Under the pieces are notes generated by a model. It saw nothing but the letters and a program-made list of their open reading frames with translations. It had not been told where the DNA came from and did not search any database. A program made the position numbers and the translations under genes. A stretch of DNA of 64,000 nucleotides from a virus: the IMG/VR virus record IMGVR_UViG_3300025732_000024, positions 31,305 through 95,304 of that record; one strand, written 5' to 3'. Position 1 is the first letter of the stretch. The number at the start of each line of letters is the position of its first letter. Below, one piece after another: positions 3,933 to 26,579 of the stretch.

Positions 3933-5072
3933 TTACATAAAGATGGGTGATTGATTTAAAGTCTTGAGCAGTTCCGCCGCGTGAGATTCAACCTCTTTAG
4001 AGTCAGGCTGTGAAGGGTTCACAACAGGTTCTTTAATTGATTGCTCCAAGTTAATAAGAGGCTTTGCTCTTTTTTCAATCAATTCCAAGTGAAACTCAAT
4101 GTGTCCAAGTTTGTCCGATTGGGACTTAGTGTGAAAAGCGATATCTTCACTAGGAACAGCAGAAAATAGCTCATTAAATTCACTATTTGATAACTTAGCT
4201 TCAGATACTAAATCTTCTGCTTTCTGGCGTAAATCATAATAGCGACTAGCAACTATTTCTTTCTTTTCAAAGTTAGCGATTAGAGCAGATTTTTCAGTTA
4301 ATGCTGACTCCAGATGCTTAACCTGACCAGCTAATTTGTCGTTTTCAGAAGTGAGGATTTGCTGCTTGCTAAGAGCATCAGACAAAGCAGTTTTAGCAGA
4401 TGCTAATTCTACTTCCAGGGTTTTATTGTCTAATTCATTCATACTATTTGTTGGTGAATTAAGGTAAAAATTGGGATTACCATTGATAGCTACATTTTTC
4501 AATTCCACAAAAGATTTACCATAACCGACACTAGGATCTGCGGGTATATCCTCAGAGGAAATTTCAAATAAAACTATCTTTGTAGCCTCTAACAAAGCCT
4601 TTTTTGTTAGCTCCCTATAACCATCGTTATCAGAATATTCAGCAGGTGTAACTACTCGATATTCCTCAACTGAATAACCAAAGCTAATACCGCCAGATGT
4701 CCCGTCCTCAATATCAGACATGAACTGATCTGCCAGGGCATTTTTAGATAACTTAGCCATAGCAAAACCCTTTTCGCCGTCCAAAATCACATTCTTGATA
4801 ATGCCGATTTTCTGACCGCGAGTATGATTTTTTAAGAATGGACAAGTACCACTAGCCACCCTAGACAAATCCCAGGCATTAGGGTCATGGGATAAATACT
4901 CATCAAATACCACACTAGCTCCGTCGGGAAGCTCAGATAAATAACCGTATCTTTCACAGATATTCCCCTTAGAGGAAAAGGAAAAACCAACGGTTCTTTC
5001 CTCTCGGTTCAACTGTAAATCCGTAGACAGAAACTTGGTTAATATAGTTTTATTTTTGATTGCTGTGGGCAT
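3933..5072 (-). CDS. HK97-type prohead protease fused to coiled-coil scaffold
   Basis: PFLKNH, GISFGY and EISS motifs; C-terminal coiled coil. Confidence 0.8.
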   Translation of the reverse strand: MPTAIKNKTILTKFLSTDLQLNREERTVGFSFSSKGNICERYGYLSELPDGASVVFDEYLSHDPNAWDLSRVASGTCPFLKNHTRGQKIGIIKNVILDGEKGFAMAKLSKNALADQFMSDIEDGTSGGISFGYSVEEYRVVTPAEYSDNDGYRELTKKALLEATKIVLFEISSEDIPADPSVGYGKSFVELKNVAINGNPNFYLNSPTNSMNELDNKTLEVELASAKTALSDALSKQQILTSENDKLAGQVKHLESALTEKSALIANFEKKEIVASRYYDLRQKAEDLVSEAKLSNSEFNELFSAVPSEDIAFHTKSQSDKLGHIEFHLELIEKRAKPLINLEQSIKEPVVNPSQPDSKEVESHAAELLKTLNQSPIFM

Positions 5073-10985: not shown

Positions 10986-11414
10986 TTAAAATTTTATATT
11001 TTCTGGCTTGAACAATCCGTTCTCTACAGTTTTACCTAACGCTACTAAATTTTCTCCAGTGTACTGCTCTAAATAAACTTTTATTTCTCCAGGTAAAAAA
11101 CCAGCCTCTAACATCAATAGTTCAACGCTACGTTTATTGGAAATATGCCAAGTGATGATTGCATTGTTGGCTCTATAAGCCCCTGACTTGAAGTGGACTA
11201 CCCAATACCCGTCATCGTGCTTATGTTCCCAAAAATAATCATCAAGTAACTGTCTTTCATACCAAGGAATTGTTCCTCGGTAAAGTTTGCCAAACTCGTC
11301 ACCTTCTGCTAATTTTTCATATTTTTCTAGTAGAGCGATCGCCTTCTTGATTTGATTTTCTTTTAATACTAACTTTTTGTCAAATAATCTACCGTTTAAT
11401 TCTACTAATGCCAT
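10986..11414 (-). CDS. Hypothetical protein
   Basis: Own promoter repeat; terminator at about 10952-10978. Confidence 0.7.
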   Translation of the reverse strand: MALVELNGRLFDKKLVLKENQIKKAIALLEKYEKLAEGDEFGKLYRGTIPWYERQLLDDYFWEHKHDDGYWVVHFKSGAYRANNAIITWHISNKRSVELLMLEAGFLPGEIKVYLEQYTGENLVALGKTVENGLFKPENIKF

Positions 11415-21471: not shown

Positions 21472-21713
21472 TCGAGTTGTGGCAGAATCGCACCGTTAAA
21501 AAGCGCGGTAGACCTGCCACAGGTCAAGGTGAATCAAGGTATATTCCTCTTGAATTGTTACCCGCCGTAGATAATCTCCTAGAGGAATACAGAAAGTAAA
21601 AGAAATCCCTAGTCAATGGCTGGGGATTTTTATTTTGAAAATATTTTATTTCGCTATTGACATTATAGAGAAATTATTCTATAGTGTAAGAAGTTGAAGA
21701 AACAAAGGCAATT

Positions 21714-22771: not shown

Positions 22772-23179
22772 ATGATTATTGACTTTGGTAAATACAAAGG
22801 AAAAAATATTGGGGAAGTCCCCACTCAATATCTCGCATGGGGCGCAGTTTACCTCTCCAATCGATGGAGAGATGTTTTTGAACAGGAATACGACTCTCGG
22901 TTACATTCGAGATTGTATAGGTTTCAGGTGTTTTTAAACACCACAGAACCTGAAGAATGCCTGTCCCTTCCACAGGACTTACTGCGCTCTCTACGCCTCT
23001 ACAAGAGGTTCTGGGGAAACAAGAAGATAGCTTACATAGAGAATGATGGTGATTTCATCATTCTTCCACAAGAACTGGATGAGCGGCAAAAAGATACACT
23101 TGACTTTTACTTAAAAAGTACAAGTACCATGATGGAATATTGTTGTGAACTTAATCACAACAATTACCGACAGTTCTAA
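22772..23179 (+). CDS. Protein with FGKYKG (DUF3820/ExoX C-terminal-like) domain
   Basis: IDFGKYKGKNIGEVPTQYLAW. Confidence 0.65.
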   Translation: MIIDFGKYKGKNIGEVPTQYLAWGAVYLSNRWRDVFEQEYDSRLHSRLYRFQVFLNTTEPEECLSLPQDLLRSLRLYKRFWGNKKIAYIENDGDFIILPQELDERQKDTLDFYLKSTSTMMEYCCELNHNNYRQF

Positions 23180-23303
23180 AAAAAAAGAAACCCCTGGTCA
23201 ACGACTGGGGATTTTTTATTTTAAAAATATTTTATTTTACTAGTTGACATTGTAGAGAAATTATTCTATAGTGTTAAACATGAGACAAAAGGAGATAAAG
23301 AGT

Positions 23304-23720
23304 ATGACTTTTGTAAAACCAGTAATTGCAAATAAAACAGTTAAAAAATACGATAAGGTTCTCTTTGGAAGCGGTTCAAGCCGCCCCTACAGTCCATATA
23401 CCCTACTTAGTGACGTAACTGTCACTACAAAAGATACAAGGTCTACAGGAAGTGTGAGCTTCCATATTTCTGGCACGTTGCCAGATGGTAGAACAATACA
23501 AACAGAAGGATTTTTGTACAAGAAAGGGCGCAGTCCTTGGAAGTTCAGCGGTGCTGGTCTAGCACCATTGGAATATTCCGGTGGTATGTTAAGTCACTGC
23601 CAGGATGCAGTGCATTTTATGTTTGACCCTGGAGAATGGGATAGGTCTTATCGCTACAAATTCCCTGAAACGCTTGTAACGGATACATGGTCTGCCAAGC
23701 AGACGTGGCAAGAATGGTAA
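23304..23720 (+). CDS. Hypothetical protein
   Basis: AAGGAG RBS; promoter upstream. Confidence 0.65.
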   Translation: MTFVKPVIANKTVKKYDKVLFGSGSSRPYSPYTLLSDVTVTTKDTRSTGSVSFHISGTLPDGRTIQTEGFLYKKGRSPWKFSGAGLAPLEYSGGMLSHCQDAVHFMFDPGEWDRSYRYKFPETLVTDTWSAKQTWQEW

Positions 23721-23776
23721 GCCGAAACGGGAGCAATCCCGTCCGCACAGGATGACAACCTGCGCGCTGATGAGGC
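23721..23776 (+). ncRNA. Type II hammerhead ribozyme
   Basis: GCC-GAAA-CGGGA(GCAA)UCCCG-UC^-CGCACAGG(AUGACAA)CCUGCGCG-CUGAUGA-GGC; complete core; cleavage predicted after C23743. Confidence 0.9.
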
Positions 23777-23796
23777 AAGTTAACAAAGGAGCAGGT

Positions 23797-24372
23797 ATGC
23801 GTACAATAGAATTAGCTAAAAAATTGAATTTAAAAGAAAACCAAGCAATCACTTGGTTGTCATTACCGGAATGGAAGCCTTATTTCAGGGTTAGCTTTGA
23901 GGAGAAATTAACTTCTTCATTGAGAAAGGAGATTAGCAAAAGGCTGTGGAAATATCATAGAGTTAGAAATCCCGTTAAGTTCAAGAAAATCCAAGGGGGG
24001 TTCCTTGGGACGGTAAACAATTTAATAGTTGAGGTGAATTTCTATGCTTATTACAAACCAAGCATAGAAGTCACGACAAAATACCCTTATTCAAAGGAAA
24101 CAGAAACTGTTCCTGATGTCTGGATGCCTCAAGAATATTATCTACCAACCATTGACATTAGGGAATTTAATCCGACGGATTACTCTGATGTGGCGCACCC
24201 GCTACACGAGTGGTTTGAACTAGGGGCATCGTTGGGGTATGGGGACGGGTTTTGGAATAGAGACCCTGATGAACCCCTTAATGATACTCCTGAATTCCCT
24301 ACTAGGGAAGCTGAAACAGCTTACCGTGGAGGATATGAAAGAGGATTCACCAACGGGGTAATGGATGAATAA
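23797..24372 (+). CDS. Hypothetical protein (start MRTIEL)
   Basis: AAGGAG RBS between ribozyme and ATG. Confidence 0.65.
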   Translation: MRTIELAKKLNLKENQAITWLSLPEWKPYFRVSFEEKLTSSLRKEISKRLWKYHRVRNPVKFKKIQGGFLGTVNNLIVEVNFYAYYKPSIEVTTKYPYSKETETVPDVWMPQEYYLPTIDIREFNPTDYSDVAHPLHEWFELGASLGYGDGFWNRDPDEPLNDTPEFPTREAETAYRGGYERGFTNGVMDE

Positions 24373-24428
24373 CCCACCTGATGAGTCCGGCTGGCGACCG
24401 GACGAAACACTCCGATGAGTGTCGTGGG
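24373..24428 (+). ncRNA. Type I hammerhead ribozyme, copy A
   Basis: CCCAC-CUGAUGA-GUCCGG(CUGGCGA)CCGGAC-GAAA-CACUC(CGAU)GAGUG-UC^-GUGGG; cleavage predicted after C24423. Confidence 0.93.
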
Positions 24429-24455
24429 CAGCCGTATAATTACACTGGAGAATTT

Positions 24456-24755
24456 ATGATTTATTCTGTTGGTTTTGATGAACAGGAATTGAGCAAGGTC
24501 AGCCTAGAAGCTAACAAACTCTTGTCCGGACAAGAACTTGTTTATGACAAAAAATTAATAACGTTCACCTCTTTTTCATCCTATGAAGGGGAGGAAGAGT
24601 GTGACAGAGAAGAGACCGACATCCTCTCTGGAGATACGGTGATTGTGTCCTGGTGGACTCCCTTTGCCTACATCGAAAGGATGAGGCAGGACAAAATAAA
24701 AGTCATTGTTCTGGAAACAGAACACGGAGGTATTATCAGGGTAATTTCATCTTAG
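24456..24755 (+). CDS. Acidic hypothetical protein flanked by two hammerheads (start MIYSVG)
   Basis: GGAG RBS; upstream ORF-track extension is ribozyme sequence. Confidence 0.6.
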   Translation: MIYSVGFDEQELSKVSLEANKLLSGQELVYDKKLITFTSFSSYEGEEECDREETDILSGDTVIVSWWTPFAYIERMRQDKIKVIVLETEHGGIIRVISS

Positions 24756-24756
24756 T

Positions 24757-24812
24757 CCCACCTGATGAGTCCGGCTGGCAACCGGACGAAACACTCCGAT
24801 GAGTGTCGTGGG
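24757..24812 (+). ncRNA. Type I hammerhead ribozyme, copy B
   Basis: Near-identical to 24373-24428 (one loop-II change); direct repeat extends to about 24833; cleavage predicted after C24807. Confidence 0.93.
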
Positions 24813-24839
24813 CAGCCGTATAATTACACTGGATAAACT

Positions 24840-24871
24840 GAAAAAACCCGTCAGAAATGACGGGTTTTTTA
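24840..24871. terminator. Intrinsic terminator
   Basis: AAAAAACCCGTCA-GAAA-TGACGGGTTTTTT. Confidence 0.85.
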
Positions 24872-25185
24872 TTGCCCATTCTCCAATAGTTCCGCTAAAG
24901 TCTCCAGAAGCCACACCAAATCCTCTCTAGGCATCCATCCCAGCTTGTTAAATCTGTCCAGAATTTGCCGGAATCGCTCCTGTTTGTCGTCCATGATTGA
25001 ATTGTACCGTTCGTGTGTCCCTACCTCAAACAATTATATATAAATAATTGTAGAGATAAATTTAATCCAATTAGCAAACCAATCGGCATAGTCCATTAAT
25101 TGTGCAATCAATTTTAGGCATAAATAAACCCGCTAAAACTGTATTAATTTTAGCGGGTTTTAGTTATTGGTGCAATTCAAAAAGG

Positions 25186-25701
25186 TCACGCTATTCTCAA
25201 AAAAGTATCTAGCGTTTTTGGCGGCACGGGTAAGTGGGATGAGAACTCCAGATTGTATTTTTTTGCCCATCGCCTCAAGGTTTTAATAGTGGGAGATTTG
25301 CCAATTTGACGACACAACCACGCAGGAACTTCCGAACCTTTGATGCCCTCAATGGCAATTCCGTCGCCCAATGCTTTATCAAGTTCCGTCTTCAATACCG
25401 GACTTGAATTTAACCGCTTAACAATTTGAGGTAAAGTCACCCCTGTGTTGCACCCTACTGGTCTTTTAGTTCCGTTTTCTCTCTTCTGCTCAAAGCGGAT
25501 ATATGCCAGCATCATCAGCCATTGACAATGAGTTTTGCTGATAATCGGCTCTTCTCCTTTCTTTAATTTACGAAAGTCGGGAACTTGACAAATCTGCTTG
25601 TATTTCCGCCAAGTGCGATCGCTTATCGGGTCATTGTAAATATGAGCGCAAGCAGCCCACACCCAGCGTTCCGGATATCCTTGGGGTTCATTATTTTTCA
25701 T
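25186..25701 (-). CDS. Hypothetical DNA-binding protein
   Basis: SDRTWRKY and TIKTLRRW HTH-like motifs. Confidence 0.5.
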   Translation of the reverse strand: MKNNEPQGYPERWVWAACAHIYNDPISDRTWRKYKQICQVPDFRKLKKGEEPIISKTHCQWLMMLAYIRFEQKRENGTKRPVGCNTGVTLPQIVKRLNSSPVLKTELDKALGDGIAIEGIKGSEVPAWLCRQIGKSPTIKTLRRWAKKYNLEFSSHLPVPPKTLDTFLRIA

Positions 25702-26203
25702 TTCTCCACTCCTTCGCATTAATAAAATTAATATTGGCCGCTACTGCCGCTTGTCTGTCCTCTTCCCTATCTCCCACCATCAAATACTCGTGTCCAGGAT
25801 ACAAACTAATCCCAAAATTCAACATTCCTGGATTAGGTTTTCTAAAGTTGCCAAAATCTTCCCAGCGATTTGATAGTAGTGGACTCTGTCCGACTTCCCT
25901 GGCAAATTTAGATAGTCGGTAAAAAGTTTCACCTCCATCGGTGCAGAAGAAAATCATTAACATCTTAGGGATTAAATCAAGGGTGATTTTCTGTTCTGTA
26001 AAACAATCTTCAAGGGACTTAAACCCTGCTTTCACGCCACCTTGATTGGTGACACCAATGATTTTGTAATCGTGATAGCGAGCGATCGCATCTTCAACTC
26101 CAGGAATCATCTCCTGGTCATAGGGGTCATTGATGAACGTCGCCCCTGACTTACTGCGGCGCACCGTTCCGTCCAAATCCAAAAACAATACTTTACTGCT
26201 CAT
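25691..26203 (-). CDS. HAD phosphatase (GmhB/PNK 3'-phosphatase-like)
   Basis: FLDLDGT, TNQGG, RKPNPGM, VGDREED. Confidence 0.9.
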   Translation of the reverse strand: MSSKVLFLDLDGTVRRSKSGATFINDPYDQEMIPGVEDAIARYHDYKIIGVTNQGGVKAGFKSLEDCFTEQKITLDLIPKMLMIFFCTDGGETFYRLSKFAREVGQSPLLSNRWEDFGNFRKPNPGMLNFGISLYPGHEYLMVGDREEDRQAAVAANINFINAKEWRNEK

Positions 26204-26579
26204 TTTGCTTTTCTAGGTTTAGCCGTTTTTTCCTACCGCGATTCTTGTAATGTCCAAATTCCTTTATCTGAATTCGCTCTTCCGTTACTCCAAACTCTAA
26301 CGCTTTCTCCCGCTCATGCGTCCTAACGCTATCCTGTTCTTGTCGCCACAAAGCCGCTACAGCCATTTGCAGTCCGGTTGTGACATCTACTCCGTAGCAG
26401 GCAATGACTCTTAAAAATTTACGCTTAGATTCCGCCGGAACTTTACCCCGGATTTCTCGCATAGCATCGCCTACTACGGGCTTGCCGTCAATCATCCCTC
26501 GGTCAGGATGATTGCTGATATCTTCTTCTAGTTCTTGTTTAGTCTGTGGTTTCCGTCGTTCGGTCATGATATTCATCAA
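26193..26579 (-). CDS. Hypothetical protein (possible RHH)
   Basis: ORF in operon. Confidence 0.5.
   Translation of the reverse strand: MMNIMTERRKPQTKQELEEDISNHPDRGMIDGKPVVGDAMREIRGKVPAESKRKFLRVIACYGVDVTTGLQMAVAALWRQEQDSVRTHEREKALEFGVTEERIQIKEFGHYKNRGRKKRLNLEKQNEQ

Follow-up and report, generated by a model that had tools for sequence, protein, structure and literature searches.

What are three hammerhead ribozymes doing in one short phage operon, each of them set against the stop codon of a small gene? The stretch analysed (the window, 64,000 nucleotides) comes from an IMG/VR phage genome that is complete at 95,304 bp and carries direct terminal repeats; the window spans genome positions 31305-95304, and positions below are those of the window unless the genome or another record is named. 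A sequence-only reading of the window had proposed one type II and two type I hammerheads that would cut the transcript of a single operon into monocistronic units, each keeping its ribosome-binding site, had taken the presence of two topologies in the same position as an argument for selection, and had suggested an Infernal scan with the Rfam models as a check. Clustered hammerheads of mixed type that flank single genes were described in prophages by Perreault et al. (2011; PMC3088659), among them triple arrangements in Agrobacterium tumefaciens, Azorhizobium caulinodans and Clostridium scindens; for comparable triple arrangements these authors showed cleavage both in vitro and in vivo, and they put forward the hypothesis that such clusters process polycistronic transcripts. 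A review of 2019 describes the role of bacterial and phage hammerheads as still elusive (PMC6765202), and we found no paper in the literature on hammerheads in cyanophages or in the relative CL131 introduced below. The arrangement is thus not new, having been described for prophages in 2011, and the window is a well-supported new example of it.

Among deposited phages, the sole DNA-level relative of the genome is the Aphanizomenon phage vB_AphaS-CL131 (MG209611; CL131), and its closest relative is the IMG/VR record IMGVR_UViG_3300044635_001707 (G001), with 95-97% identity in the homologous stretches. The operon (Table 1) runs in the order promoter, gene 1, type II hammerhead, gene 2, type I hammerhead (copy a), gene 3, type I hammerhead (copy b) and terminator, and the promoter and terminator delimit one operon that holds all three ribozymes, in agreement with the sequence-only reading. 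Pfam and PHROG searches with genes 1-3 and Atlas searches with genes 1 and 2 gave no match, and IMG/VR searches with gene 1 and with an alignment of the family of gene 3 (the MIYS family) returned only the closest relative as a related locus. Compared with its G001 orthologue, gene 1 has 33 differences in 417 nt (8%), 21 of which fall at third codon positions, as do 13 of the 20 differences in gene 3, and this bias indicates that both are real coding genes. A module of terminator plus promoter (hairpin, U-tract, TTGACA-17-TATAGT) lies before successive small operons, at 21574-21685 and 23163-23274; approximately 90 nt of it are present three times in G001, and it bears a likeness to the promoter-stem-loop joints of T4-like phages.

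Table 1. Features of the hammerhead operon and of the convergent genes beside it, in window positions.
Feature	Position	Strand	Evidence and parts
Intrinsic terminator of preceding operon	23192-23210	+	Hairpin plus U-tract
Sigma-70-type promoter TTGACA-17-TATAGT	23244-23272	+	11/12 matches; module conserved in G001
Gene 1, 138 aa, without known family	23304-23720	+	AAGGAG ribosome-binding site before ATG 23304
Type II hammerhead	23721-23782	+	RF02276 over 1-66/66, fold, covariation; predicted cut after C23743; TAA 23718-23720 directly before stem II 5' strand (G23721); stems II 23721-23723/23774-23776, III 23727-23742, I 23744-23751/23759-23766; core CUGAUGA 23767-23773, GAAA 23724-23727, GUC ending at C23743; predicted pseudoknot U53-C56 (23753-23756) with 23779-23782
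Gene 2, 191 aa, orphan	23797-24372	+	AAGGAG 23786-23791 before ATG 23797; in swapped cassette 23784-24360
Type I hammerhead, copy a	24373-24434	+	RF00163, own model R1, fold, covariation; predicted cut after C24423; TAA 24370-24372, stem I from C24373 (0 nt gap); stems I 24373-24377/24424-24428, II 24385-24390/24398-24403, III 24407-24412/24417-24422; core 24378-24384; predicted pseudoknot 24392-24395 with 24431-24434
Gene 3, 99 aa, divergent MIYS-family member	24456-24755	+	GGAG 24447-24450; family alignment
Type I hammerhead, copy b	24757-24818	+	RF00163, R1; offset +384 from copy a; predicted cut after C24807; TAG 24753-24755, stem I from C24757 after 1 nt; predicted pseudoknot 24776-24779 with 24815-24818
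Intrinsic, bidirectional-looking terminator	24841-24870	+	13-bp hairpin plus U-tract, fold of 24754-24880; operon end
Gene without family, beside HAD gene	25186-25719	-	
PNKP-type HAD 3'-phosphatase, without kinase domain	25691-26203	-	PF08645, DxDGT motif
Gene without family, beside HAD gene	26193-26579	-	

The standard scan misses these RNAs. At the gathering thresholds (37 bits for RF02276, 34 bits for RF00163) a default Rfam search returned zero ribozymes, all three hammerheads falling below the cut-off; a permissive search matched each over the full model length, at 31.2 bits for the type II element (RF02276) and at 24.6 and 24.3 bits for copies a and b (RF00163), so the suggested check came out in favour as to model coverage and against as to score. 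The gathering score serves annotation and is no biological criterion; RF00163 is a short type I model that leaves out the variable loops and the pseudoknot, and type II copies elsewhere score 36.2 bits (CL131) and 36.7 bits (the related locus L063) with RF02276. Under our own type I covariance model (R1), copies a and b reach 94 and 93.8 bits, and the minimum-free-energy fold of each isolated element is a three-way junction for all three. The copies share core and helices with RF02276 and RF00163. CUGAUGA, GAAA and GUC are all read at the right places, C17 is the predicted cleavage nucleotide in each element, and the gaps to the preceding stop codons are 0, 0 and 1 nt; the types, positions, cores and cut sites given by the sequence-only reading were thus borne out by the model matches, folds and covariation (below).

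The bare core motif is not enriched beyond chance (seven matches where 2.9 are expected, a count that 8 of 100 shuffles also attain). A descriptor that asked for the core together with three or more pairs in stem II matched nothing but the five type I copies on either strand of the 95-kb genome, and the permissive Rfam scan of the whole genome returned no ribozyme class besides the hammerhead; matches to the type III hammerhead were rejected as merely partial overlaps of type I copies. With the type II element the genome has six hammerheads, of which three, all of type I, lie outside the operon at 11222, 11679 and 12025 of the genome. All six are in sense orientation and occupy the gaps between small genes, three within 1.1 kb in the operon of the window and three more within 0.9 kb elsewhere in the genome.

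The case for functional RNAs rests chiefly on covariation. The covariance model built from type I copies was used to find further ones, which occur in three related IMG/VR contigs and in CL131 (two copies), in 18 additional loci from metagenomes and viruses, located by way of a neighbouring gene, and in prophage-like regions of Bacillota, Actinomycetota and Peptococcaceae MAGs. A single type II copy, found with RF02276, brings the hammerheads of CL131 to three, none of which is annotated in its published record, and the arrays of related phages consist of one to four copies. Over 36 distinct type I copies, 97.1% of the pairs are standard, against 32-58% in slid controls, and 14 of the 21 pairs are changed on both sides; stem II, for example, occurs as GUCCGG/CCGGAC, GGACGG/CCGUCC, GGGAGG/CCUCCC, GGGGAG/CUCCCC and GCCCGG/CCGGGC. 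This alignment was fitted to the model, by which pairing is favoured, and an independent MAFFT alignment of 13 type I copies gave the same covariation picture. For type II the corresponding values, from five sequences, are 97% against 21-38% in slid controls, with compensatory changes in 9 of 20 pairs. The helices of both types are 95-100% paired, and compensatory changes are found in every helix.

The core of the 36 type I copies varies at N7, one copy has CUAAUGA, and some have an extra U after A9. The pair A15.1-U16.1 is kept in 35 of these copies and in all five of type II, G10.1-C11.1 likewise in 35 of 36 type I copies, and H17, which is C in the window, is A or C in relatives; between the window phage and G001, N7, a free core position, is the only difference in the type II hammerhead. 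The extra U between A9 and G10.1 (CUGAYGA-U-GGACGG) is seen in type I copies of L025 (1501-1577), L015 (1501-1575), L053, L060 and L062; an insertion at this position is known from a viroid hammerhead. The covariation, together with substitutions that are confined to loops, wobble-compatible positions and N7, argues strongly for selection, as does the recurrence of both topologies at gene junctions of related phages. Selection, as proposed by the sequence-only reading, therefore finds support in covariation and in the relatives; the two type I copies of the window do not count as independent cases, being a direct repeat of 80 nt (24373-24452 and 24757-24836, 98% identical) that includes the leader up to the Shine-Dalgarno sequence.

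Both types are also predicted to form a pseudoknot. In type I, loop II (UGGC) would pair with GCCG, four bases that lie two nt 3' of stem I; this pairing is kept in 91.7% of cases with compensatory changes in three of four pairs (variants GAC/GUC, AGC/GCU and GGU/ACC). In type II, loop I (UGAC) would pair with GUUA, two nt 3' of stem II, as in the RF02276 model; 95% are paired and two of the four pairs covary, CL131 having UAGU/ACUA in the same register. The type I contact, between loop II and the tail 3' of stem I, is a permuted equivalent of that of type II. By computational inference, these pseudoknots would be the tertiary contact that holds stems I and II parallel. Stem I of type I has 5 bp and stem II of type II only 3 bp; activity should therefore depend on the predicted pseudoknots, and with such a contact helices this short can suffice. 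Perreault et al. found that pseudoknots of this kind are needed for fast cleavage at 0.5 mM Mg2+ (PMC3088659). When 50 nt of upstream coding sequence are added to copy a, the minimum-free-energy fold pairs GGAUUCA (24343-24349) with UGAGUCC of the core (24382-24388), a helix that would block ribozyme a. A translation-gated anti-ribozyme helix near the end of gene 2 was considered on this account and rejected, the alternative fold being not significant against shuffles (z -0.8).

The placement at stop codons extends to the relatives. Of 37 distinct type I copies, 32 have a stop triplet 0-3 nt ahead of stem I. For 22 of these 32 the triplet ends an open frame that is 40 codons or longer, and in others it has been kept although the upstream gene ended earlier. 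It is likely that the abutting stop obliges ribosomes to terminate before they could unwind the ribozyme.

The comparison with G001 adds a second property of these elements. Homology between the two phages ends at 23783, just past the type II pseudoknot, and returns at 24361, 12 nt before the stop of gene 2, such that the last 12 nt of gene 2 are common to both, while the equivalent cassette of G001 holds a different gene of 75 aa. Breaks at exactly these points imply that the ribosome-binding site and most of gene 2 were replaced between two ribozymes. The third copy of G001 has a chimeric stem II, whose 5' and 3' halves come from different variants and leave two mismatches, and in L049 (Ga0208085_1000580, 3988-4005) a truncated type I remnant, CCCACCUGAUGA, is fused to a gene for a 2H phosphoesterase in such a way that the AUG of the catalytic core is the start codon of that gene. 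The cassette swap, the chimeric copy, the 80-nt repeat and the L049 remnant indicate that the ribozymes are also recombination joints, and hammerhead b most plausibly represents the joint at the right-hand end of the gene 3 cassette.

It could be argued from the same observations, and from the fact that the 80-nt repeat keeps its leader up to the Shine-Dalgarno sequence even where no gene follows, that the hammerheads are mainly passengers or boundaries of mobile or duplicating cassettes, with cleavage incidental or decaying. We regard this as improbable, since in the 36 distinct copies the pairing of the pseudoknot and of each helix is preserved by compensatory changes and the core is nearly invariant, both of which point to purifying selection on a foldable, catalytically competent RNA, beyond what a mere recombination site would call for.

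Two observations on the joints stand by themselves. Small genes that start with M(N)KALERP follow a type I or type II hammerhead in five phages (L007 12109-12405, L012 8533-8760, L001 6336-6569, L062 2326-2628 and L063 at about 2600) and have almost nothing in common beyond the first eight residues; this common start may be part of the joint that recombines. In L047 (JACCED011620350.1, 1403-1629) a HEARO RNA (RF02033, 146 bits), the RNA of IscB/HNH-type mobile elements, is inserted so that it separates a type I hammerhead from the 2H gene.

The reading that we prefer, with a probability of roughly three in four, is that these are functional hammerheads in the gaps of an early or accessory operon of a CL131-like cyanophage, transcribed by host RNA polymerase, and that their cleavage separates the cistrons. 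Cleavage in vivo and its effect on expression we infer from the sequence, fold, covariation, placement and cassette swap described above. That the cistrons become single-gene mRNAs is the hypothesis of Perreault et al. (2011), and would follow from hammerhead chemistry. Each ribozyme would fold co-transcriptionally and cut after C17, leaving a 2',3'-cyclic phosphate on the upstream and a 5'-OH on the downstream fragment. The expected products are a gene 1 mRNA with the stem III hairpin as its 3' end; a gene 2 mRNA that runs from the stem I hairpin of the type II element to the hairpins of copy a; a gene 3 mRNA whose leader, 32 nt long and with a 5'-OH, contains the Shine-Dalgarno sequence, and whose 3' end consists of the hairpins of copy b; and a trailer of approximately 60 nt with the terminator. 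The expectation that every unit would keep a ribosome-binding site thus holds for genes 2 and 3 but not behind hammerhead b, which is followed by the terminator in place of a gene or ribosome-binding site and would sever only the trailer.

The two types would differ in what they leave behind. After a type I cut nearly the whole ribozyme would stay as a structured 3' end of the upstream mRNA, and since the fragments would still be held by 9 bp (stem I plus the pseudoknot), release or religation is uncertain; the fragments of the type II cut would be held by only 3 bp, for which immediate release is expected. 5'-OH ends are poor substrates for RNase E/J decay that is stimulated by a 5'-monophosphate, and 3' hairpins with a cyclic phosphate are resistant to 3' exonucleases. 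The net effect would be an independent, probably greater, stability of each cistron, neighbouring cistrons being uncoupled in stability and translation without the use of host RNases, with the abutting stop codons terminating ribosomes ahead of ribozyme unwinding. At the same time, the conserved ribozyme sequence would provide homology for recombination, and so form the edges of exchangeable gene cassettes.

The genes that accompany the hammerheads suggest a possible extension of this scheme. MIYS-family genes, with an N-terminal MIYS followed by the motifs GDxVI and KVxLLETE, come after type I hammerheads both in this genome and in the majority of related loci. A structural model of the family (pLDDT 85) gave no convincing fold match in Foldseek (E 0.06 or worse), and its identification with the N-terminal domain of Cas1 was rejected, the best VIA Z score of 5.6 being within noise. 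The other hammerhead operon of the genome, outside the window, is closed by a gene for a small 2H phosphoesterase (genome 12747-13175; L007) with HHVT and HISVS motifs (PF08302, 27.6 bits), whose homologues are found in L043-L063 and as gp125 of CL131. A search of the PDB with its profile gave no sequence match, and its predicted model matches the catalytic domain of CNPase (Foldseek probability 1.00, E 4e-3). In 15 of the 18 further loci with a 2H homologue, hammerheads lie upstream on the same strand, and the remaining three have too little upstream sequence or are truncated by the contig end. The HAD 3'-phosphatase gene of the window is convergent to the hammerhead operon, with a common terminator region, and among the relatives only CL131 and L063 show the same arrangement; together with its two neighbours it forms a trio that is kept in CL131 (gp119-121).

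These associations raise the idea that the ribozymes and phage enzymes of 3'-end healing, namely a co-transcribed 2H cyclic phosphodiesterase of CNPase/Trl1-CPD-like type and, in some genomes, the HAD 3'-phosphatase, make up one mRNA-processing module. The enzymes would open or remove the cyclic phosphate, and thereby render cleavage irreversible, block religation by host RtcB or provide 3'-OH ends. That both enzymes act on 3' ends of the hammerhead type is suggestive. Also in favour, a search of the genome for RNA ligases (RNA_ligase, RtcB and Rnl1, the last without a positive control) found none, which leaves the classical heal-and-seal pathway of tRNA repair incomplete. Against the idea, all these loci are homologous, and common descent of the gene order, with no functional tie, may account for the linkage; most relatives lack a HAD gene near the 2H gene, and the operon of the window has no 2H gene of its own. 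Phage 2H enzymes also act as anti-defence nucleotide phosphodiesterases of the Acb1 type. In unrelated prophage loci of Bacillota and Peptococcaceae that carry the same hammerhead subfamily no RNA-repair genes were found nearby, and a general link between hammerheads and RNA repair, which we considered, is unsupported on this ground. On balance, we think a healing module unlikely, if somewhat less so than the passenger reading.

A rarer variant of the processing-module reading would have the bracketed MIYS cistrons circularised. The stem I sequences on both sides of gene 3 are identical, and two further MIYS-family genes at 11.2-12.1 kb of the genome are flanked in the same way; the unit 24424-24807 (384 nt), once cut at both ends, would rebuild a nicked hammerhead, its 5' GUGGG re-pairing with CCCAC of the downstream copy, a form on which self-ligation or RtcB could act; the outcome would be a circular mRNA that resists exonucleases. 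The unit contains an ordinary stop codon, so that there is no endless reading frame, and many relatives have no second ribozyme between their last MIYS gene and the 2H gene that directly follows it. Moreover, a search by Perreault et al. for splicing or circularisation of RNA from clustered bacterial hammerheads was negative (PMC3088659). Of the readings considered here, we hold this one to be the least probable.

Separation of cistrons by self-cleavage, the reading that we prefer, can be set beside several known systems. Like the prophages of Perreault et al., the phage of the window has several hammerheads of mixed type on one strand within 1-2 kb, among small genes of unknown function, and with pseudoknots. 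Unlike those cases, its host group is the filamentous cyanobacteria, as for CL131-like phages, its copies lie below the Rfam thresholds, and it is documented here that a cassette was swapped, that one copy of a relative is chimeric and that a 2H gene is constantly present downstream. Dunn and Studier reportedly described the processing of the early polycistronic mRNA of phage T7 by RNase III. As there, RNA structures between genes would yield single-gene phage mRNAs with hairpin ends; in T7 the cut is made by a host enzyme, whereas the RNA of the window would cut itself and carry 5'-OH and 2',3'-cyclic phosphate ends. With retrozymes and viroid-like circular RNAs the window has in common a unit that is bracketed by direct repeats with a hammerhead in each, and it differs from them in belonging to a dsDNA phage and in enclosing a protein-coding cistron with a ribosome-binding site.

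The default Rfam thresholds thus miss a whole subfamily of hammerheads. The comparison with G001 provides direct comparative evidence that ribozymes bound exchangeable gene cassettes, and the constant 2H neighbour is a cyclic phosphodiesterase, for which the known class of substrate is precisely the kind of end left by a hammerhead; if the proposed healing module were true, it would be the first defined enzymatic partner for bacterial and phage hammerheads. Since a cultured and published pair, vB_AphaS-CL131 and Aphanizomenon flos-aquae, carries the same ribozymes, the processing hypothesis is open to study in vivo.
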